From: Escherichia coli
GTDB taxonomy: Bacteria; Pseudomonadota; Gammaproteobacteria; Enterobacterales; Enterobacteriaceae
DNA: 64,000 nt
Assembly (NCBI RefSeq): GCF_009931435.1
Contig: NZ_CP043414.1
Direction: 5' to 3' (one strand)
A program made the translations under genes and the position numbers. The first letter of the stretch is position 1. Every line of letters begins with the position of its first letter. The notes below the pieces were generated by a model. The model was not told where the DNA came from. It was given only the letters and a program-made list of their open reading frames with translations, and did no database searches. This document shows, piece after piece, positions 5,700 to 46,071 of the stretch.

Positions 5700-6066
5700 G
5701 TCGACAGGGAGTCAGACAACGAAGTGAACATCAGGATGATGACACTTCTGAAGGACACACCAGGAGGGTGTTTCAGGGAAAGGCTTCTGGATGAAGCGAA
5801 GAGGATGACGCAGGACGCGTTAAAGGACACCTCCAGGATGGAGAATGAGAACCGGTCAGGATGATTCGGTGGGTCAGGAAGGCCAAGGACACTTCAGGAT
5901 GAAGTATCATATCGGGGTGGTGTGAGCAGGAAGCAATAGTTCAGGATGAACGATTGGCCGCAAGGCCAGAGGAAAAGTTGTCAAGGATGAGCAGGGAGCA
6001 ACAAAAGTAGCTGGAATGCTGCGAAACGAACCGGGAGCACTGTGAATACAGTGCTCCCTTTTTTTA
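5700..6066 (+). ncRNA. csrB: CsrB small RNA (CsrA-sequestering)
   Basis: Starts GTCGACAGGGAGTCAGACAACGAAGTGAACATCAGGATGATGAC...; about 18-20 reiterated CAGGA(U/A)G / AGGA motifs across about 360 nt; ends in hairpin GGGAGCACTGTGAATACAGTGCTCCC plus T8 (6031-6066); no long ORF in the region. Confidence 0.93.
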
Positions 6067-6110
6067 TTCCTGCTATCCTTCGCGGCAGTTTTTCTTATTG
6101 AGGTTGCTTT

Positions 6111-6440
6111 ATGACCACTCATGACCGCGTTCGTCTCCAGTTGCAGGCGCTTGAAGCGTTACTGCGTGAACATCAGCACTGGCGAAACGATGAACCCCAG
6201 CCGCATCAATTTAACAGTACCCAACCGTTCTTTATGGACACCATGGAACCACTGGAGTGGTTGCAGTGGGGGCTGATCCCGCGAATGCACGATTTGTTAG
6301 ATAATAACCAGCCATTACCGGGCGCTTTTGCTGTTGCACCCTATTATGAAATGGCGCTGGCGACGGACCATCCGCAACGCGCGCTTATTCTGGCTGAGCT
6401 GGAAAAACTGGATGCTCTTTTTGCGGATGATGCGAGCTGA
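6111..6440 (+). CDS. yqcC: DUF446-family protein YqcC
   Basis: 109-aa ORF MTTHDRVRLQLQALEALLREHQHW...; GAGG RBS at 6100-6103; stop overlaps the truC start. Confidence 0.85.
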   Translation: MTTHDRVRLQLQALEALLREHQHWRNDEPQPHQFNSTQPFFMDTMEPLEWLQWGLIPRMHDLLDNNQPLPGAFAVAPYYEMALATDHPQRALILAELEKLDALFADDAS

Positions 6441-7222
6441 TGCTGGAAATAATCTACCAGGATGAATGGCTGGTTGCGGTAAATAAACCCTCCGGCTGGC
6501 TGGTTCACCGCAGCTGGCTGGATCGCGACGAGAAAGTAGTGGTCATGCAAACCGTGCGTGACCAGATTGGTCAGCATGTATTTACCGCGCATCGGCTGGA
6601 TCGACCGACGTCCGGCGTATTGCTGATGGGACTATCCAGCGAGGCCGGACGGCTGTTGGCACAACAGTTTGAACAGCACCAAATCCAGAAACGTTACCAT
6701 GCGATTGTGCGCGGCTGGCTGATGGAAGAGGCTGTGCTGGATTATCCGCTGGTGGAAGAACTGGACAAAATCGCTGATAAATTCGTCCGCGAAGATAAAG
6801 GTCCACAGCCAGCGGTGACACATTATCGCGGTCTGGCGACCGTAGAAATGCCTGTAGCGACCGGACGTTACCCGACTACGCGCTACGGTCTGGTGGAACT
6901 GGAGCCGAAAACAGGACGCAAGCATCAGCTCCGTCGCCATCTTGCCCACTTGCGCCATCCGATTATTGGCGACAGCAAACATGGTGATTTACGTCAAAAT
7001 CGTAGCGGTGCTGAACATTTTGGCCTTCAGCGGTTAATGCTGCATGCCAGTCAGTTGTCATTGACACATCCTTTTACTGGCGAGCCGTTGACTATTCACG
7101 CGGGCCTGGACGGCACCTGGATGCAGGCGTTATCACAATTTGGCTGGCGGGGTCTGCTTCCTGAAAATGAAAGGGTTGAGTTCAGTGCGCCATCGGGTCA
7201 GGATGGAGAGATAAGTTCCTAA
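6440..7222 (+). CDS. truC: tRNA pseudouridine(65) synthase
   Basis: 260-aa [27 protein letters not shown]... with RluA-family pseudouridine synthase motifs (HRLDRPTSG); start overlaps yqcC stop (TGATG). Confidence 0.92.
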
Positions 7223-7239
7223 TCCAGGGAGAAAACGGT

Positions 7240-7689
7240 ATGGCGGAAATTGGTATTTTTGTGGGCACAATGTACGGAAATTCGCTGTTAGTGGCGGAAG
7301 AAGCGGAAGCAATTCTGACCGCGCAGGGCCACAAAGCAACGGTATTTGAAGATCCTGAATTAAGCGACTGGCTGCCCTATCAGGATAAGTATGTTCTGGT
7401 GGTTACGTCCACGACCGGGCAGGGCGACCTTCCTGATAGCATTGTGCCGCTCTTTCAGGGAATTAAAGATACCCTGGGCTTCCAGCCGAATCTGCGTTAT
7501 GGCGTGATTGCGCTCGGCGACAGTAGTTATGTGAATTTCTGCAATGGCGGCAAACAGTTCGATGCCTTGTTGCAGGAACAGAGTGCGCAGCGGATAGGGG
7601 AAATGCTGCTGATTGACGCCAGTGATAACCCGGAACCGGAAACGGAATCAAATCCGTGGGTCGAACAGTGGGGCACGCTGTTGTCCTGA
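7240..7689 (+). CDS. yqcA: flavodoxin-like FMN protein YqcA
   Basis: 149-aa [26 protein letters not shown]... (flavodoxin fold signature). Confidence 0.88.
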
Positions 7690-8108
7690 AAAATTGCCGT
7701 TTTAAGCAAACTGAATCGAATCTTTTCAGGCAAATGCCAGTAAAAACTGCTTCATAGCGCGGATTTTTACTGGCGTTTGCCTGGAGTCAAGCGATCCATT
7801 TCATACTCTTCTTTATTTCTTCGTTTTAATCCTTCCTTTCTTGTTCTTGTTTTCATTTCCGTGAAGTGGATTCCACCGTCCAGGGCTAATGCCAAAATCG
7901 GGCCTCATTGAACGCATTAATGTTGTGTTGTTGCACGGTGAGCCGCTATGGCGCGCTTTTTATACTGCTATTGCCAGATATAAACACGCGCCGTATTCGG
8001 CGAACGACCTATAAAAACGGCAAAAAACACCCTACGTCACCTCTGATTTCCTGGCGATGTCGCAGTCCAGAGTGAGCGTGGCTAACGCGAATTTTCAGGA
8101 GTGCAACA

Positions 8109-9461
8109 ATGAGTTCTTTAAGTCAGGCTGCGAGCAGTGTGGAAAAACGCACGAATGCTCGTTACTGGATAGTGGTGATGTTGTTTATCGTCACATCCTT
8201 CAACTACGGCGACCGCGCTACGCTCTCTATCGCCGGTTCGGAAATGGCCAAAGATATCGGCCTTGATCCTGTGGGAATGGGCTATGTGTTCTCTGCTTTC
8301 TCATGGGCTTATGTTATCGGGCAGATCCCTGGTGGCTGGTTGCTGGACCGTTTTGGTTCAAAACGCGTCTACTTCTGGTCGATCTTTATCTGGTCGATGT
8401 TTACCTTGCTGCAAGGCTTCGTCGATATCTTTAGTGGATTCGGCATTATCGTTGCCCTGTTTACGCTGCGCTTCCTGGTCGGGCTTGCTGAAGCGCCATC
8501 TTTCCCCGGTAACAGTCGCATTGTAGCGGCCTGGTTTCCGGCGCAGGAAAGGGGAACTGCAGTGTCTATTTTTAACTCCGCCCAATACTTCGCAACGGTG
8601 ATCTTCGCGCCGATTATGGGCTGGCTGACTCATGAAGTGGGTTGGTCACATGTCTTCTTCTTCATGGGCGGTCTGGGCATTGTCATCAGCTTTATCTGGT
8701 TGAAAGTCATCCATGAGCCAAATCAACATCCGGGCGTAAATCAGAAAGAGCTGGAGTACATCGCCGCGGGTGGTGCGCTGATCAATATGGATCAGCAAAA
8801 TACCAAAGTTAAAGTGTCGTTCAGCGTGAAGTGGGGGCAGATCAAACAGCTGCTCGGGTCACGGATGATGATCGGCGTTTATATCGGTCAGTACTGTATC
8901 AACGCCCTGACTTACTTCTTCATTACCTGGTTTCCGGTTTATCTGGTGCAGGCACGCGGGATGTCGATTCTGAAAGCGGGCTTTGTGGCTTCCGTACCGG
9001 CGGTTTGCGGTTTTATCGGCGGCGTGTTGGGGGGGATTATTTCAGACTGGCTGATGCGCCGCACAGGTTCGCTGAACATTGCGCGTAAAACACCGATCGT
9101 GATGGGCATGTTGCTATCAATGGTGATGGTGTTCTGTAACTACGTCAACGTTGAGTGGATGATCATCGGCTTTATGGCGCTGGCCTTCTTCGGTAAGGGC
9201 ATTGGGGCGCTGGGTTGGGCAGTAATGGCAGATACCGCGCCAAAAGAGATCAGCGGTCTTTCCGGTGGCCTGTTCAATATGTTTGGTAACATTTCCGGTA
9301 TCGTCACGCCAATCGCAATTGGTTATATCGTTGGCACGACTGGCTCCTTTAATGGGGCGCTGATTTATGTTGGTGTTCATGCCCTAATCGCGGTACTGAG
9401 CTACCTGGTGCTGGTGGGCGATATCAAGCGTATCGAGCTGAAACCTGTCGCGGGGCAATAA
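8109..9461 (+). CDS. gudP: glucarate/galactarate MFS transporter
   Basis: 450-aa [27 protein letters not shown]..., 12-TM MFS profile; CAGGAG RBS at 8096-8101. Confidence 0.92.
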
Positions 9462-9462
9462 G

Positions 9463-10803
9463 ATGACGACACAATCCAGTCCTGTTATTACTGATATGAA
9501 GGTTATTCCGGTCGCCGGGCACGACAGCATGTTGCTTAATATTGGTGGTGCACATAACGCATATTTCACCCGCAATATTGTGGTACTCACCGATAACGCC
9601 GGGCATACCGGTATTGGTGAAGCGCCCGGCGGAGAGGTGATTTATCAAACACTGGTCGATGCTATTCCGATGGTGCTGGGCCAGGAGATCGCACGACTGA
9701 ATAAAGTGGTTCAGCAGGTGCATAAAGGTAATCAGGCAGCCGATTTTGATACCTTCGGCAAAGGTGCCTGGACTTTTGAATTGCGCGTTAATGCCGTGGC
9801 GGCGCTGGAAGCTGCCTTGCTTGACCTGCTAGGTAAGGCGCTGAATGTTCCGGTCTGCGAACTGTTAGGGCCAGGCAAGCAACGCGATGCTATTACTGTC
9901 CTTGGTTATCTGTTTTATATCGGTGATCGGACCAAAACCGATCTTCCTTATCTGGAAAATACGCCGGGCAACCATGAGTGGTATCAATTGCGGCATCAGA
10001 AAGCGATGAACAGCGAAGCCGTTGTGCGTCTGGCGGAAGCTTCACAGGATCGCTATGGCTTTAAAGATTTCAAACTTAAGGGCGGAGTGTTACCTGGCGA
10101 GCAAGAAATCGACACTGTTCGTGCATTGAAGAAACGCTTCCCGGATGCGCGAATTACCGTTGATCCCAACGGTGCATGGCTGCTTGATGAAGCCATTTCT
10201 CTGTGCAAAGGGCTGAATGATGTTCTCACCTATGCCGAAGACCCGTGCGGCGCTGAGCAGGGTTTCTCCGGACGTGAAGTGATGGCGGAGTTTCGACGGG
10301 CGACCGGCTTGCCCGTCGCGACTAACATGATCGCCACCAACTGGCGCGAAATGGGCCATGCGGTGATGCTCAATGCGGTAGATATTCCACTTGCCGATCC
10401 GCATTTCTGGACGCTTTCCGGTGCAGTCCGCGTGGCGCAACTTTGCGACGACTGGGGGCTGACCTGGGGCTGCCATTCTAATAACCACTTTGATATCTCT
10501 CTGGCGATGTTTACCCATGTGGGCGCGGCGGCACCGGGTAATCCTACCGCTATCGATACCCACTGGATTTGGCAGGAGGGCGATTGTCGTCTGACCAAAA
10601 ATCCGCTGGAGATTAAAAACGGAAAAATTGCCGTTCCTGATGCGCCCGGTCTGGGCGTGGAACTGGACTGGGAACAGGTACAAAAGGCACATGAGGCCTA
10701 TAAACGTCTGCCTGGCGGTGCGCGTAACGACGCAGGCCCGATGCAATACCTGATCCCCGGCTGGACCTTTGACCGTAAACGTCCCGTTTTCGGCCGTCAT
10801 TGA
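9463..10803 (+). CDS. gudX: glucarate dehydratase-related protein (enolase superfamily paralogue)
   Basis: 446-aa [34 protein letters not shown]...; tandem paralogue of the following gudD. Confidence 0.9.
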
Positions 10804-10823
10804 TTTTGAAAAAGGACATAGAT

Positions 10824-12164
10824 ATGAGTTTTCAATTTACGACGCCTGTTGTTACTGAAATGCAGGTCATCCCGGTGGCGGGCCATGACAGTATGCTGAT
10901 GAATCTGAGTGGTGCACACGCACCGTTCTTCACGCGTAATATTTTGATTATCAAAGATAATTCTGGTCACACTGGCGTAGGGGAAATTCCCGGCGGCGAG
11001 AAAATCCGTAAAACGCTGGAAGATGCAATTCCGCTGGTGGTGGGTAAAACGCTGGGTGAATACAAAAACGTTCTGACGCTGGTGCGTAATACATTTGCCG
11101 ATCGTGATGCCGGCGGGCGCGGTTTGCAGACATTTGATTTGCGGACCACTATTCATGTGGTTACTGGGATAGAAGCGGCAATGCTGGATCTGCTGGGGCA
11201 GCATCTGGGGGTTAACGTGGCATCGCTGCTGGGCGATGGTCAACAGCGTAGCGAAGTCGAAATGCTCGGTTATCTGTTCTTCGTCGGTAATCGCAAAGCC
11301 ACACCGCTGCCGTATCAAAGCCAGCCGGATGACTCATGCGACTGGTATCGCCTGCGTCACGAAGAAGCGATGACGCCGGATGCGGTGGTGCGCCTGGCGG
11401 AAGCGGCATATGAAAAATATGGCTTCAACGATTTCAAACTGAAGGGCGGTGTACTGGCCGGAGAAGAAGAAGCCGAATCTATTGTGGCACTGGCGCAACG
11501 CTTCCCGCAGGCGCGTATTACCCTCGATCCTAACGGTGCCTGGTCGCTGAACGAAGCGATTAAAATCGGTAAATACCTGAAAGGTTCGCTGGCTTATGCA
11601 GAAGATCCGTGTGGTGCGGAGCAAGGTTTCTCCGGGCGTGAAGTGATGGCAGAGTTCCGTCGCGCGACTGGCCTGCCGACCGCAACCAATATGATCGCCA
11701 CCGACTGGCGGCAGATGGGCCATACGCTCTCGTTACAATCCGTTGATATCCCGCTGGCGGATCCGCATTTCTGGACGATGCAAGGTTCGGTACGTGTGGC
11801 GCAAATGTGCCATGAATTTGGCCTGACCTGGGGGTCACACTCTAACAACCACTTCGATATTTCCCTGGCGATGTTTACCCATGTAGCCGCTGCTGCACCG
11901 GGTAAAATTACTGCTATTGATACGCACTGGATCTGGCAGGAAGGCAATCAGCGTCTGACCAAAGAACCGTTTGAGATCAAAGGCGGGCTGGTACAGGTGC
12001 CGCAAAAACCAGGATTGGGCGTAGAAATCGATATGGATCAGGTGATGAAAGCCCACGAGCTGTATCAGAAACACGGGCTTGGCGCGCGTGACGATGCAAT
12101 GGGAATGCAGTATCTGATTCCTGGCTGGACGTTCGATAACAAGCGTCCGTGCATGGTGCGTTAA
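10824..12164 (+). CDS. gudD: D-glucarate dehydratase
   Basis: ORF track starts at 10800; the ATG at 10824 gives [39 protein letters not shown]..., the expected enolase-superfamily N-terminus. Confidence 0.92.
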
Positions 12165-12199
12165 GACAGAAAACCAAAACCGGCTCTGTCAGGAGCCGG

Positions 12200-12335
12200 G
12201 TTGAGTCTGATGCCAAACGCAAAATTGCTTGTTGCGCTACGTATCAGGCCTACATTATTTTTTTAATTCATTGAATTTAATTGGTGTTTATGCCGGATAA
12301 GGCGTTAACGCCGCATCCGGCATAAACACAGGCAC
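12200..12335. repeat. REP/BIME-like palindromic units in the convergent gudD-barA intergenic region
   Basis: GCGCTACGTATCAGGCCTACA and the imperfect palindrome GCCGGATAAGGCGTTAACGCCGCATCCGGC match the REP consensus style. Confidence 0.6.
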
Positions 12336-12395
12336 CTTGTCACCAGTCTGAAACCAGCGTTATAAAAAGCCGATTGCTACTCGACAAGACGTCCA

Positions 12396-15152
12396 TTACC
12401 CAAGAATTTTGCTGGCTTCGCGCGCCACATTATCCATCTCGTCCAGCAGTTCCAGAAGCTCTGGCTCCAAATCTTCTTCTTTAGTACCGCTGCGTAGCTG
12501 TTGTTCGATCAGTTGGCAGAGATTCTTCATACGCGGCACACCGCTATAGCCGCAACTGCCATGCAGTTTATGAATCAAATCAACCAGGCCTTCCGGGTTT
12601 TCTCCAACCAGCTGTTCCTCAACTTTGTTGCGAACTTCAGGCAGGAAATCGAGTAACATTTGCAGCATATCGCGCGCTAAATCGGTTTTTCCTGCTGCCT
12701 GGCGTAGTGCCAGTTGCCAGTCGAGGGTCGCATTCGGGTTCACCACAATTTCATTGAATTCGGGGGTCACGACGCGAGAGGAAATACCGCTGCCAGGCTT
12801 GTAGCGCAACAGCAAATTATGCAATCGTTCTTCTTCAATCGGTTTCGCCAGATAATCGCTCATCCCTGCGCCAAGCAGCTTCTCTTTTTGCCCGGCCATT
12901 GCATGCGCCGTTACCGCGATAACCGGCGTTTGTTGCTGATGGGGGAGCTGGTGGATGAGTTCGCAGGCCCGAATACCGTCCATGTCCGGCATTTGAATAT
13001 CCATTAAGATCAAATCGAACGGCATCTGTTTCGCCCGTTCAACCGCCTGATGCCCGCTATCGCAAAGTTCCACATGTTGCACCATATCTTCCAGCAATGC
13101 GCCGATAAGTTTCAGGTTAGCGGGGTTGTCATCAACCGCCATGACTGTCATTGCCAGCTTACTTTCATCGGTTACAGGCAAAAGCGTGTTTTGTTTGTGA
13201 TGACAAAATTCCGTCAGGGCAGGGAACAGGCGCGTAGGTGTTAATGGTTTCAGCAGACACGCGCCGATACCATCTTGCTTAAGTTTTTCAGCATTGACTT
13301 GTGCATGGCAAGGAAGTGCCAGCATCAGAAAATCGGTCATCGATACCGCTTTCGCTAATCGCTCATGTTGCATTGTTAGCGGCTCGCGGAAGGTCACCGC
13401 AATGCCTAATAACATCATGTCGTAATGCGCGGGAGGCAGCGCGGAGAACGTTGGGCTATAAACCACTTCCAGCGGCGTTTCACTTAAAATATCCAGCGTG
13501 CATTGCGCTGCTGCGGAGTTTGGTTCGACATAGGCCAGGCGCTTGCCGGCGAGGCACTGGGTGGATGGCCCTTCGATAATAATGTTCGGATTCAGATCGA
13601 GATTAATGTGGAACCAGAAAGTTGAACCGCGATTCGGCTGGCTATGGAACGAAATATCGCCGCCCATTTCATTAACCAGTTTCTGTGTGATCACCAGCCC
13701 CAGCCCGGTGCCACCATGACGGCGGGAAATACTGGCATCAGCCTGTCGGAAGGCCTGGAATAAGCGCGATTGATCGCGTTCAGGAATACCAATGCCGGTA
13801 TCCCGAATCTGCACTTCAATCTGCACTTTGGTATTACTCAGCGCACGTTTTTCTACCAGAATATCAATGTTGCCATTCTCGGTGAATTTAATTGCATTCC
13901 CTACCAGGTTAGTGATGATTTGCTGTAATCGCAGTGGGTCGCCAATTACGTTATCGGGCACGTCGCTCTTAATATTGAGCGTCAGTTCCAGCCCTTTATC
14001 GTGAGAAGAATGTGCCAGCAGGGTAACGACTTCATCCAGCGTGCTGCGTAGTGGGAATGGAATACTTTCCAGAATCAGCTTACCTGCTTCCAGTTTCGAG
14101 AAGTCGAGAACATCATTAATAATTGCCAGCAAATTATTTGCCGAACGTTCAATCGTATTCAGGTGATCGCGCTGCGTTGGTGTTAATTCTGTTTTCAGCG
14201 TCAGGCGGGTAAAGCCAATAACACCATTCAGTGGTGTACGCAGCTCGTGTGACATATTTGCCAGAAACTCGGATTTAATACGCGCCGCTTCCTGGGCGCG
14301 CTTTTTCGCCAGATCCAACTCAACGTTCTGAATTTCCATCTGCTCCAGCGTTTCACGCAGATCGGACGTCGCCTGGTCGATATTGTGCTGCATCTCTTCG
14401 TGATAAGCTGCCAGCGACATTGCCATCGAGTTGATGCCATTTTTCAGCATATCCAGCTCGCCGAGCATAAATCCTTCCACTCGGCTGTCGAGTTGTCCGC
14501 GACGGATACGGTCGACGGTATTCACCATGTTGCGAATTGGACCGGTTACATCACGCATGAGTCGCCAGCCAAAAATAAGCGCAATACCGATACAAAACAG
14601 CATCATCACGCTGGAAATAAAGATCTCTTTATATTGCTGCAAGCGAACCGATTTAAGATCCAGCTCAAGCGCAATATATCCCAACATATTTTGACTATTT
14701 TTGGCATCGCTACTGGGCGATTCGTCGGGGGAGTAACTCTCAGAAATAATCGGCGTGCGGAGGATCATAATATCGCCGTCACGAGTGACAGTGAGCTGGC
14801 GAGGAAACGGCACGTTGCTGCCGAGCTGCATTGATGAGGGATCAAGATGAAAATTGGAGGTGACAAAGAGTCGGTTATTTTCATCATAAACCGAAATCGC
14901 GCGAACAATATCGGAATGGCGACGATGCAGTACGCTTATTAACTGACCGATAGATTCGCGATTTTGCAGGCTCATGCCATATTCAGTAGAAACTGCAAGC
15001 GGCTCAATAATGCTGGCTCCGGCATCTTCCAGTTGACGCTGCAAGTCGTTATAGCGATGCACGACGAAAAAGATACTCAGCAATAAACCAATAAGGACGG
15101 TCGGTGCCAGGATCAGAATCATCATGCGTGCGCGCAGGCTGTAGTTGGTCAT
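12396..15152 (-). CDS. barA: hybrid sensor histidine kinase BarA (BarA/UvrY two-component system)
   Basis: 918-aa [27 protein letters not shown]... with HAMP, HisKA (SHELRTPLN), ATPase, receiver ([14 protein letters not shown]) and HPt domains. Confidence 0.95.
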
Positions 15153-15208
15153 GGAGTTCCGTTATGGGACAATTAAGGTCACACTGTTAAATTGAGAAAG
15201 TCTCGCCA

Positions 15209-16510
15209 ATGGCGCAATTCTACTCTGCAAAACGACGCACGACGACGCGTCAGATCATAACTGTTTCAGTCAACGACCTCGACTCTTTTGGTCAGGGCGT
15301 GGCACGACATAACGGCAAAGCGTTATTTATTCCTGGATTATTGCCACAGGAAAACGCGGAAGTTACTGTTACTGAAGATAAAAAACAGTACGCCCGCGCT
15401 AAAGTCGTGCGCCGGTTAAGCGATAGCCCGGAACGCGAAACGCCACGCTGCCCTCATTTTGGCGTATGCGGTGGCTGTCAGCAACAACACGCCAGCGAGG
15501 ATTTACAGCAGCGAAGCAAAAGTGCGGCACTCGCCCGATTAATGAAACACGAAGTCTCTGAAGTGATCGCCGATGTTCCCTGGGGCTATCGCCGTCGCGC
15601 GCGTTTAAGTCTGAACTACTTACCGAAAACACAGCAACTTCAGATGGGGTTTCGCAAAGCGGGCTCCAGTGACATTGTCGACGTTAAACAATGCCCCATT
15701 TTAGTGCCCCAACTTGAAGCATTGCTGCCCAAAGTCAGGGCATGCCTGGGCAGCTTACAAGCTATGCGCCATCTTGGTCATGTTGAACTGGTACAGGCAA
15801 CCAGCGGCACGCTGATGATTTTGCGCCATACCGCACCGCTAAGTTCGGCAGATCGCGAAAAACTGGAACGCTTTTCGCATTCTGAAGGCCTGGATCTGTA
15901 TCTCGCCCCCGATAGTGAGATACTCGAAACCGTCTCTGGTGAGATGCCCTGGTATGACTCAAACGGGTTGCGCTTAACTTTTAGCCCGCGCGATTTTATT
16001 CAGGTCAATGCGGGTGTGAACCAAAAAATGGTAGCGCGTGCGTTGGAATGGCTGGATGTACAACCTGAAGATCGCGTACTGGATCTGTTCTGCGGTATGG
16101 GCAACTTTACACTGCCATTGGCGACACAAGCTGCCAGTGTGGTGGGTGTAGAAGGCGTTCCGGCGCTGGTTGAAAAAGGCCAGCAGAATGCGCGTCTTAA
16201 TGGCTTACACAATGTGACGTTTTATCACGAAAATCTTGAAGAAGATGTCACAAAGCAGCCGTGGGCGAAAAACGGCTTCGATAAAGTGTTGCTGGACCCG
16301 GCGCGAGCAGGTGCCGCAGGTGTTATGCAGCAAATTATAAAACTGGAACCTATTCGTATAGTTTATGTATCCTGTAATCCTGCAACGCTGGCTCGGGATA
16401 GCGAAGCGTTATTAAAAGCAGGATATACCATTGCGCGACTGGCGATGCTGGATATGTTCCCACACACGGGACATCTGGAATCGATGGTACTTTTCTCGCG
16501 CGTTAAATAG
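15209..16510 (+). CDS. rlmD: 23S rRNA (uracil1939-C5)-methyltransferase
   Basis: 433-aa [33 protein letters not shown]... with TRAM domain, Cys cluster ([11 protein letters not shown]) and SAM-MTase motif. Confidence 0.93.
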
Positions 16511-45712: not shown

Positions 45713-45918
45713 CGAGCCGCATTCCGGCATTTAAACATGAATATAGCAGGGGAAATCAACAGTTATAGAATGGCGTCGGGTGCTTGAGGCTGTCTGGCGT
45801 TGAGCATTCGCGAGGTTCCAGATGGACAAAAGCCCCGGGCGATATTTCTATCAACCTGAGGCTCGCGTTCGAACGTAGCAATTCGAATGTTAGTCTCTTC
45901 TTTGCAGGGAGGCAAGAC

Positions 45919-46071
45919 ATGCTGACAAAATATGCCCTTGTGGCAATCATCGTACTGTGTTGTACAGTACTGGGATTCACGCTGATGGTAGGCGACTCGT
46001 TGTGTGAGTTGAGTATCAGAGAACGTGGTATGGAGTTTAAGGCAGTTCTCGCTTACGAACCGAAGAAGTAG
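45919..46071 (+). CDS. Hok/Gef-family type I toxin (hok-like; position corresponds to the K-12 sokX locus)
   Basis: 50-aa [53 protein letters not shown] with GGGAGG RBS; N-terminal TM helix, conserved SLCE and AYE motifs; upstream GCTTGAGGCT element typical of hok mRNA 5' ends. Confidence 0.7.

Follow-up and report, generated by a model that had tools for sequence, protein, structure and literature searches.

The enolase superfamily includes paralogues of low activity or without a known function, such as the low-efficiency members of the D-mannonate dehydratase subgroup, which keep their catalytic residues, have altered specificity loops and have no efficient substrate known. GudX, the glucarate dehydratase-related protein (GlucDRP), resembles them in these respects, but differs in being fixed in tandem with an active paralogue, the D-glucarate dehydratase (GlucD) GudD, and in having apparently been co-crystallised with it. 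For E. coli K-12, structures exist of GudD (1EC7, 1EC8, 1EC9 and 1ECQ) and of GudX, formerly ygcY (4IL0, and chains C and D of 4GYP). At the DNA level, a known comparison is with tufA and tufB of Salmonella and E. coli, which undergo concerted evolution by gene conversion, have near-identical DNA and group by species. Like gudX and gudD, these are two paralogues in one chromosome with identical protein stretches; gudX and gudD, in contrast, have saturated synonymous sites and group by gene. The gudPXD operon channels oxidised sugars (glucarate, galactarate) into central metabolism, and use of these sugars has been connected with the way E. coli and Salmonella colonise the inflamed gut (PMC3877842, PMC11775122). 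Recent pathway descriptions omit gudX, although it is kept beside gudD in no fewer than three gammaproteobacterial orders: PMC11775122 lists five core pathway genes and does not mention it.

The window analysed here is a stretch of 64,000 nucleotides of an E. coli genome. It carries the operon in the E. coli order gudP-gudX-gudD, with a single direction of transcription:

8109..9461, plus strand: gudP, first gene of the operon, MFS glucarate/galactarate transporter (from the ORF, TIGR00893 and RefSeq)
9463..10803, plus strand: gudX, glucarate dehydratase-related protein (GlucDRP), ATG start, 446 aa
10804..10823, plus strand: gudX-gudD spacer of 20 nt, read directly
10824..12164, plus strand: gudD, D-glucarate dehydratase (GlucD), ATG start, 446 aa
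12177..12202, strand not assigned: G+C-rich hairpin between the convergent genes gudD and barA, from consensus scans only

The TIGR00893 match of gudP (537 bits) is above the cut-off, and a single nucleotide separates its TAA stop (9459-9461) from the gudX ATG. For gudD we used the ATG at 10824 instead of the upstream TTG at 10800 given in the mechanical ORF list; an AAGGA that is Shine-Dalgarno-like by consensus resemblance only (10812-10816) lies 7 nt 5' of this ATG. Long antisense ORFs inside gudX and gudD (e.g. 10090-10800 and 10797-11318, minus strand) were taken as mechanical ORFs. The T-run of the hairpin is on the minus strand, making it a likely terminator for barA, and termination possibly occurs in both directions. 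The pair is a textbook one, with gudX and gudD annotated in the same stretch in 5,403 of 5,426 complete E. coli genomes (RefSeq), and the original prediction recognised it correctly. The coordinates of the two adjacent 446-aa genes are confirmed; their extensive shared identity amounts to 281 of 443 residues in BLASTP (63%, with 78% positives and E = 0); and RefSeq annotation and PDB matches bear out both the names and the enolase-superfamily paralogy. The predicted common motifs are also present, as a 28-aa block (residues 257-284 of GudX and 258-285 of GudD) followed by ATNMIAT and WR.MGH. In DNA, the gudX allele shares 96-98% identity with the alleles of other E. coli, and exactly this GudX protein is on record from 43 contigs (MULTISPECIES, Escherichia). 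An imported, unusually divergent gudXD allele was ruled out: both flanks show the same 95-99% pattern relative to E. coli, so that the divergence belongs to the strain lineage and not to gudXD.

GudD scores 897.8 bits against TIGR03247, the NCBIfam equivalog for D-glucarate dehydratase (cut-off 828.7), and 1028.7 bits against PDB 1EC7_A. It shares its length of 446 aa, the equivalog score and all active-site residues with the K-12 enzyme, and differs from the crystallised protein only by S3F, V41L and E394Q, none of which is at a tracked active-site position. Judged by the equivalog score and near-identity to a solved enzyme, the product is D-glucarate dehydratase, and its 99% identity to the crystallised protein predicts that it dehydrates D-glucarate or L-idarate to 5-keto-4-deoxy-D-glucarate. 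On sequence grounds, both GudX and GudD belong to the GlucD family of the mandelate racemase subgroup of the enolase superfamily. The original prediction proposed a comparison of active-site residues, and all 16 tracked GlucD residues (H32, T103, Y150, K205, K207, D235, N237, E260, D261, E266, N289, D313, H339, N341, H368 and R422) are kept in GudX, being invariant in 44 of 44 GudX-clade sequences. Barrel strand 2 ends with a KxK motif (K205 and K207 in GlucD), which lies within FKLKGG in both products; its lysines, whose roles are those known from the work of Gulick et al. in 2000 and 2001, are kept in 78/78 GudD-type and 44/44 GudX-clade sequences. The metal ligands D235, E260 and N289, at the ends of strands 3, 4 and 5, occur in both proteins of the window and do not vary in any of the 122 aligned sequences. 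The same invariance in both clades is seen for the His-Asp dyad H339/D313 and for N341, H368 and R422, with N341 having been a target of mutagenesis (PDB 1JDF, N341D; 1JCT, N341L).

Residues 1-446 or 2-446 of GudX match the PDB chains 4IL0_A at 1038.5 bits and 4GYP_C at 1037 bits. The TIGR03247 score of GudX, 750.5 bits, is under the cut-off, so the gene should not be classed as a glucarate dehydratase. The prediction was fair in calling its catalytic role uncertain, given this score and the lack of an assigned function in the literature: our search found no paper assigning a function to gudX, with "gudX" mostly matching unrelated text, and nothing usable on GlucDRP, glucarate dehydratase-related protein, 4GYP, 4IL0 or the active-site residue names. 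The fixed differences of GudX lie mainly in two capping loops, with others at a few barrel positions that adjoin catalytic residues:

9541..9561, plus strand: gudX codons 27-33, the '20s' capping loop, with the clade-specific residues I27, G28 and A33
9724..9801, plus strand: gudX codons 88-113, a remodelled capping loop, from the 122-sequence alignment

In the '20s' loop, L28, S29 and P34 occur in 97-100% of the 78 GudD-type sequences and I, G and A in 89-98% of the 44 GudX-clade sequences; the GlucD mutants in PDB 3PWG (S29G+P34A) and 3PWI (P34A) are altered at exactly these GudX-signature positions. The second loop has a 2-aa insertion (G89 N90), followed by F95, K100, W103 and E106, then a 2-aa deletion opposite GudD T108/T109, followed by N110 and A113. 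W103, E106 and N110 are found in 44 of 44 GudX-clade members, where 99% of GudD-type sequences have Q102, D105 and H111. The clade signature is complete in the window protein (I27, G28, A33, W103, E106, N110, A113, N293, A321, C337 and both indels), with each feature 89-100% conserved among the 44 members; A77 and V285 are likewise specific to GudX. The K-12 protein has the same length, the same slot between gudP and gudD and all of these residues; the two are near-identical and their differences are allelic only.

An enzyme that scores below an equivalog cut-off beside its better-scoring paralogue could be a redundant or decaying duplicate, either a reserve glucarate dehydratase or a pseudoenzyme that is being lost. 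Hubbard et al. are said to have found in 1998 that GudX has only feeble GlucD activity, and the gene is occasionally lost, as in the hybrids described below and in E. coli 2452, where a deletion extends from gudX nt 498 through gudD. The selection data already contradict such a reading. Omega is 0.012-0.06 for gudX as compared to 0.018-0.11 for gudD, over divergences with dS > 1, and within the Enterobacteriaceae gudX evolves no faster than gudD (dN ratio 0.6-1.15), showing that purifying selection on gudX is as strong as on gudD. Intact gudX is retained in at least 40 genomes from three orders, and the 16 invariant active-site residues together with omega values of 0.01-0.06 identify it as a maintained gene. 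In S. Typhi, ygcY (= gudX) was reported as apparently intact, and growth on glucarate needed functional gudD in trans (bioRxiv 10.1101/2024.02.14.580360). We infer that gudX cannot substitute for gudD in that organism, a conclusion which is ours and was not the authors' test; the lack of rescue of a GudD-defective strain also argues against a back-up enzyme. Decay or redundancy is thus a very improbable explanation for gudX.

The distribution of the pair points to an old duplication. gudX followed by gudD is found in tandem in 40 genomes of Enterobacterales, Orbaceae and Pasteurellaceae, and in a neighbour-joining (NJ) tree of these genomes GudX and GudD are reciprocally monophyletic, with the window gudX in the GudX clade. 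Two separate clades across 40 genomes imply that the duplication is ancient. The tandem order is kept in 40 of the 44 GudX-clade loci; the exceptions are one incomplete locus, one hybrid and two loci with X alone. These two are in Paludibacterium, where garK and gudP precede X, and in Halomonas, where X adjoins KdgD (5-dehydro-4-deoxyglucarate dehydratase).

Does the DNA of this genome carry traces of exchange between the copies? The original prediction took the nucleotide-level similarity of the pair to make it a potential site of gene conversion. The features bearing on this idea are:

10501..10520, plus strand: longest perfect gudX/gudD run, 20 nt (CTGGCGATGTTTACCCATGT), partner copy at 11865..11884
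11865..11884, plus strand: 20-nt run in gudD, spanning codons L348-V354
10396..10413, plus strand: second-longest perfect gudX/gudD run, 18 nt (GATCCGCATTTCTGGACG), partner copy at 11760-11777
10231..10314, plus strand: 28-aa identical block, gudX copy, containing the metal ligand E259 and F268 (which aligns with GudD F269)
11595..11678, plus strand: 28-aa identical block, gudD copy, containing E260, E266 and F269 (codon 11628-11630)

The similarity itself is real in that the genes form a direct tandem repeat: an independent repeat finder places the repeat starts 1364 nt apart, at 71-79% identity. Local identity reaches 85% in 60-nt windows. Both observations would be in line with concerted evolution, i.e. 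conversion now homogenising parts of gudX and gudD. Overall, however, DNA identity is only 66% (70%, 82% and 46% at codon positions 1, 2 and 3), and the longest perfect run is no more than 20 nt. Synonymous divergence is near saturation (pS 0.65, dS 1.49). Among conserved degenerate codons, 135 of 266 (51%) are identical vs. 109 expected, and synonymous matches between the genes show no clustering (permutation p 0.98 and 0.70). The longest within-genome run equals the cross-genome median (p 0.62), and in 43 sliding windows of this genome the excess of within-genome over cross-genome X-D identity is never above z = 2.0, for measures that genome-specific codon usage could inflate. In the 28-aa block, only 70 of the 84 nt are identical at the DNA level and all 14 differences are synonymous; its codon identity, counted from the alignment as 14/28, is close to the gene average. 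Eight E. coli alleles contain no run of paralogue-matching variants, and the minor alleles that do match are scattered. The sole cluster, gudD nt 511-516 of FDAARGOS_1290, is a multi-base change (GAC TCA TGC -> GAT AAA TGT) and was rejected because it does not reproduce gudX sequence.

Efficient RecA-dependent exchange in E. coli is generally said to need at least some 20-30 nt of identity, and the longest run here is at or under that length; a divergence of 34% is strongly anti-recombinogenic. With every test negative in this window, including the DNA-level alignment of the two genes for conversion tracts, and with the X and D clades cleanly apart, recent conversion events in this genome are refuted, and ongoing homogenisation of the pair is exceedingly unlikely. 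The likeness of gudX and gudD here is kept by selection on the protein and not by DNA exchange. Taken jointly, the identity of the genes, their ancient duplication and the lack of conversion in this window constitute a conclusion that we hold with high confidence. No result alters the status of the locus as a known gene pair without conversion in this genome.

Recombination between the copies has nevertheless occurred in relatives. In E. coli 2018-01-1CC a single 1338-nt gudX/gudD hybrid lies between gudP and barA. It shows 4 mismatches against the nearest X/D allele pair, and its junction falls within hybrid nt 1039-1059, corresponding to the 20-nt run at 10501..10520. A junction probe found this junction in 2018-01-1CC only among the E. 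coli genomes. An independent gudX/gudD hybrid is present in Pantoea stewartii, with a crossover interval of ~27 nt in the ATNMIAT motif, for which the homologous segment in the window is:

10315..10341, plus strand: gudX codons 285-293 (VATNMIATN), homologous to the P. stewartii crossover interval

This segment contains a 12-nt identical X/D run (10327-10338). Both natural hybrids score under the TIGR03247 cut-off (763.7 and 781.8 bits), and their predicted products combine the capping domain and the greater part of the barrel of GudX with the C-terminus of GudD. The E. coli hybrid was recognised by a match in a single piece with a 1338-nt span; a count of matches with at least 80% query coverage did not single it out, as normal genomes also matched as two joined pieces. 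A query with a synthetic chimera for the reciprocal D5'-X3' hybrid gave no single-piece match of high identity in the 5,426 E. coli genomes, its best matches being ordinary loci joined from two pieces. Recombination at short identical runs deletes one 1364-nt repeat unit and leaves an in-frame gudX/gudD hybrid. The products resemble Lepore-type fusions, in which the 5' part of the upstream gene is joined in frame to the 3' part of the downstream gene and exactly one repeat unit is lost. The differences are that the gudX/gudD hybrids are seen only in relatives and not in the window, and that the crossovers used very little homology (20 nt in E. coli, an interval of ~27 nt in P. stewartii). Short identical runs are thus real, if rare, substrates for recombination.

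Further hints of exchange come from the wider family. Within-genome identical runs of 59, 49 and 40 nt (genomes L023, L008 and L035) are longer than in any of the 78 cross-genome comparisons of these genomes, and runs of at least 38 nt occur in 6 of 18 high-GC3 genomes vs. 0.29 expected. In the sliding-window outliers L033, L032 and L028, the excess is spread over the whole gene, which we read as probably due to shared codon usage rather than tracts. Finally, in 39 of 40 genomes, against an expectation of 21, the two paralogues agree at residue 269 (F or Y). The number of independent switches, which depends on the NJ tree, is at least two and probably three or four. Family-wide, then, the conversion idea retains some substance, in the form of rare hybrids, long identical runs and in-step changes at residue 269, but it does not hold for the genome studied here.

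What, then, might a strongly conserved GudX do? It may quite possibly, at a confidence just short of even, be a competent partner subunit of GudD in a mixed tetramer. GudX, catalytically competent and co-produced with GudD, would assemble with it in the tetramer and there change or extend the activity of the complex rather than act as a second glucarate dehydratase. This model rests on one unpublished crystal entry plus synteny: PDB 4GYP, known here by its chain names, holds GlucD and GlucDRP chains, and we count the 40/44 tandem loci and the matching residue 269 in its favour. Against it, GudX crystallises alone (4IL0, 8 chains), as does an orthologue (3N6H, 792.6 bits), and the X-only loci of Paludibacterium and Halomonas also count against a heteromer. 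These same observations fit an independent dehydratase or epimerase that acts on another acid sugar without needing GudD and stays in the operon solely to share its regulation and transport. Such an enzyme would also explain why catalytic and metal-binding residues are invariant, why the capping loops were remodelled and then frozen, and why purifying selection on gudX is strong. On the other hand, GudX scores as a sub-threshold GlucD and has no substrate on record, 4GYP suggests that pairing with GudD is possible, and linkage to gudD is pervasive (40 of 44 loci). We regard a stand-alone enzyme as a serious but somewhat doubtful possibility.

The lone phenotypic hint in the open literature is a Tn-seq study of Dickeya solani, which lists gudP, gudX, gudD and garL as needed on galactarate. 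In that species gudP, gudX, gudD, garL, garR and garK are co-directional, so that a polar effect of gudX insertions on garL, garR and garK is expected, and polarity explains the phenotype without a separate role for GudX. A function as galactarate dehydratase was dropped for the same reason and because D. solani has garD.

A stricter form of the mixed-tetramer model has GudX and GudD co-evolve as an obligate heteromer, in which the F/Y switches at residue 269 would mark a contact across the mixed interface. We consider this rather unlikely. Short-tract conversion can explain the pattern equally well; alternatively, the switches may mark a short-tract conversion hotspot that keeps the mixed interface matched. 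If the obligate heteromer were true, the natural hybrids would be ready-made domain-swap experiments on the role of GudX. For future experiments it is useful that gudX is strongly constrained, that its differences are mainly in capping loops and that natural hybrids exist. Residue 269 itself sits in the middle of the 28-residue block, the only stretch of that length that is identical in GudX and GudD.

The tandem genes gudX and gudD were originally predicted to be paralogues and a potential site of gene conversion. This raises two questions: whether the two copies exchange sequence, and what the less well understood GudX (GlucDRP) does beside GudD (GlucD). The pair itself is as predicted, with two adjacent open reading frames whose products share 281 of 443 residues in BLASTP (63%; E = 0) and both carry the motifs quoted in the prediction.

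9463-10803, + strand: gudX, 446 codons
10824-12164, + strand: gudD, 446 codons from the ATG at 10824

A repeat finder independently reported direct repeats over both genes (1364-nt spacing, 71-79% identity). In a mechanical ORF list gudD begins further upstream, at a TTG at 10800; AAGGA sits 7 nt 5' of the ATG at 10824, and the 446-residue GudD starting at this ATG corresponds over its full length to the crystallised enzyme, with three substitutions (S3F, V41L and E394Q) relative to PDB 1EC7. Only 1 nt separates the end of gudP from gudX and 20 nt separate gudX from gudD, so that the three genes look like one translationally compact operon. The gene pair is already known and ordinary: both proteins belong to known families and have solved structures (1EC7 and others for GudD; 4IL0 and chains C and D of 4GYP, at 1037-1038 bits, for GudX as 'glucarate dehydratase-related protein'). 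The 2.7-kb gudX-gudD stretch is found in 5,422 of 5,426 complete E. coli genomes, with gudP on one side and convergent barA on the other. GudD passes the NCBIfam glucarate dehydratase equivalog (897.8 bits; cut-off 828.7) and, judged from its sequence, would be the D-glucarate dehydratase that carries out the first step after GudP uptake. GudX, at 750.5 bits, falls short of the same cut-off, and its proper name is therefore GlucDRP and not glucarate dehydratase; E. coli annotation calls gudX 'enolase C-terminal domain-like protein' and gudD 'glucarate dehydratase'. The 90%-identity cluster containing the window GudX (18,102 members) includes 450-residue proteins called GudP, presumably a clustering artefact.

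For the window, gene conversion between the two genes is contradicted by five concurring tests, and the DNA alignment run in search of conversion tracts revealed none. In a codon-aware alignment the genes are 66% identical (70%, 82% and 46% at codon positions 1, 2 and 3), and synonymous divergence is near saturation (Nei-Gojobori pS 0.65, dS 1.49). Perfect matches extend to at most 20 nt (CTGGCGATGTTTACCCATGT, at 10501-10520 in gudX and 11865-11884 in gudD), the next longest being 18 nt (starting at 10396 and 11760). Identical codons number 135 of 266 degenerate same-residue codons, where the codon usage of the two genes predicts 109 ± 8. Synonymous matches show no clustering: a permutation test gives p 0.98 when scored on the best window of 20 codons and p 0.70 when scored on the longest run. 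Even the 28-residue block that is identical in both proteins (GudX 257-284, GudD 258-285) has 70 of 84 nt in common with all 14 differences synonymous, and its 14 identical codons out of 28, counted from the alignment, are close to the gene average. In a comparison of eight E. coli alleles, paralogue-matching variants lie scattered and form no runs. The pair behaves unlike tufA/tufB, which are converting duplicates. One allele, that of E. coli FDAARGOS_1290, has five base changes within 8 nt at gudD nt 508-516 (GAC TCA TGC to GAT AAA TGT, giving S171K), the source of which is not gudX.

The comparative data indicate that the duplication is old. In a scan with each species represented by a single genome (80 loci), gudX followed by gudD was present in 40 genomes, from Enterobacteriaceae, Erwiniaceae, Pectobacteriaceae, Yersiniaceae, Budviciaceae, Orbaceae, Pasteurellaceae and one MAG. 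A neighbour-joining tree of 122 proteins separates GudX and GudD into two clades with similar internal species order, and places the single-copy genes of Pseudomonas, Bacillus, Bradyrhizobium and others with GudD. Median gudX-gudD DNA identity is hardly higher within genomes (0.668) than between them (0.657). Two clades without a within-genome excess imply a duplication older than the split of these orders. In the window pair, all 43 overlapping 120-nt windows stay at or below z = 2.0 relative to the cross-genome distribution, so each copy evolved on its own along the lineage of this genome. Across 6440-16510, no complete E. coli genome exceeds 99.0-99.4% identity over gudXD or either flank, most being 95-99% identical, which implies that the source of the window is an Escherichia lineage with few sampled genomes. 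A comparison locus labelled E. coli (L027) has a dS of about 0.45-0.5 to the window and probably belongs to a different Escherichia species. Lucifera butyrica has tandem glucarate dehydratase genes at about 2511 and 3907 of its locus (L056); both are GudD-type, a sign that a separate duplication took place outside the GudX clade.

Recombination between gudX and gudD does occur in relatives, rarely. Two natural hybrids, both Lepore-type fusions, were found, the first of them with a synthetic gudX 5'-gudD 3' query.

L083 3001-4338 (NZ_AP021892.1 3928138-3929475; second record NZ_AP027869.1): hybrid of E. coli 2018-01-1CC
L031 4001-5335: hybrid of Pantoea stewartii subsp. stewartii CCUG 26359

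In E. coli 2018-01-1CC a single 1338-nt in-frame gudX/gudD gene lies between gudP and barA, with 4 mismatches over 1338 nt to the closest normal allele pair. Its switch from gudX-type to gudD-type, at hybrid nt 1039-1059, falls within the 20-nt run, the longest stretch that the window genes share perfectly. A 120-nt junction probe matches at 100% only in this strain (at most 95% in the rest of the 5,426 complete E. coli genomes), and the exact protein is recorded from one contig. The P. stewartii hybrid, which arose independently, is a 445-codon gene in the order gudP, hybrid, garL, garR, garK. It is gudX-type through GlucD codon 286 and gudD-type from codon 294, placing the crossover in the ATNMIAT motif (homologous window sites 10315-10341 and 11679-11705). 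Seven contigs, up to 4.6 Mb long and one with a source named strain DC283, encode the identical protein, so the hybrid is not an assembly accident. A search of 5,426 E. coli genomes for the reciprocal gudD 5'-gudX 3' hybrid returned none. E. coli 2452 has a plain deletion of gudX from nt 498 onward plus all of gudD, leaving a remnant (L081 4001-4498) annotated as a partial pseudogene. The conversion proposal thus fails for the window itself, and what survives of it is rare recombination within the family at the very conserved tracts it had named.

Shorter exchanges are possible in some relatives. Short conversion tracts may be present in Enterobacter sp. R1, E. asburiae and Acerihabitans, where the longest identical gudX-gudD run within the genome (59, 49 and 40 nt, respectively) is longer than in any of the 78 cross-genome comparisons made for that genome. 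Runs of at least 38 nt occur in 6 of 18 high-GC3 genomes, compared with 0.29 expected (Mann-Whitney p 3e-4), and long runs lie mostly in codons 252-278. The sole variable position of the 28-residue block, F or Y at residue 269, lies within this region.

10264-10266: gudX codon 268
11628-11630: gudD codon 269

The paralogues agree at this residue in 39 of 40 genomes (21 expected; loci L001-L045), E. cloacae being the only discordant one. On a concatenated neighbour-joining tree it changes 4 times in GudX and 5 times in GudD; as we read the tree, four changes fall on the same branches in both, and accepted family relationships require a minimum of two to three joint events. This match could stem from short-tract conversion within the most conserved block or, alternatively, from a shared contact that co-evolves; old conversion tracts get erased at synonymous sites.

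With regard to function, gudX is a conserved, constrained paralogue with its catalytic set intact and its capping loops altered. The active-site comparison suggested in the prediction covered 16 residues (H32, T103, Y150, K205, K207, D235, N237, E260, D261, E266, N289, D313, H339, N341, H368 and R422), known from the work of Gerlt and Rayment; the PDB mutants 1JDF and 1JCT, both at N341, support this list in part. All 16 are kept in 44 of 44 GudX-clade and essentially all 78 GudD-type sequences. Clade-fixed differences (GudD to GudX) lie mostly in two loops of the capping domain.

20s loop: L28I, S29G, P34A
Segment 88-114: 2-residue insertion, R94F, R99K, Q102W, D105E, loss of T108 and T109, H111N, T114A
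Either side of metal ligand N289: T286V, D294N
Next to H339: S322A, S338C
Remaining, outside the loops: G78A, Q140K, L234V, A257T

Structures 3PWG (chain A, GlucD S29G+P34A) and 3PWI (chain A, GlucD P34A), compared here with window 10824-12161, put the GudX residue into GlucD at two clade-diagnostic positions, suggesting that others have already probed the 20s loop.

Purifying selection on gudX is strong (omega 0.012-0.06) and similar to that on gudD (0.018-0.11). GudX evolves no faster than GudD within Enterobacteriaceae (dN ratio 0.6-1.15) and 1.3-1.7 times faster at greater distances. These selection data speak against a redundant or decaying copy, which we consider very unlikely. So does S. 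Typhi, where ygcY (= gudX) is reported apparently intact and growth on glucarate needed functional gudD in trans (bioRxiv 10.1101/2024.02.14.580360); that gudX cannot substitute for gudD there is our inference and not a test by those authors. One of the S. Typhi GudD substitutions, G78D (same preprint, with our alignment), falls on a clade-distinguishing position. Our tentative first choice is that GudX would be made together with GudD and work in a mixed tetramer, its active site functional with specificity or kinetics unlike those of GudD; PDB 4GYP holds both proteins in one crystal entry. The main rival, somewhat less probable, is a stand-alone enzyme for another acid sugar, as favoured by GudX-type genes without an adjacent gudD in Paludibacterium yongneupense (L029 4001-5335, after garK and a gudP-like transporter) and Halomonas eurihalina (L041 4001-5335, beside 5-dehydro-4-deoxyglucarate dehydratase, KdgD). 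Small new items, useful but modest as leads on the old question of what GudX does, are the two hybrids, the agreement at F/Y269 and the catalogue of loop-specific differences.

Other features were noted in the window.

5709-6068, + strand: CsrB small RNA (Rfam RF00018, 379.8 bits), about 2 kb upstream of gudP
12177-12202: G+C-rich hairpin between gudD and barA
12284-12329: palindrome between gudD and barA, 23+23 nt with a perfect centre (GTGTTTATGCCGGATAAGGCGTT / AACGCCGCATCCGGCATAAACAC), which looks REP-like
45778-45934, + strand: sok antitoxin RNA (Rfam RF01794, 103.2 bits), implying a hok/sok-type locus
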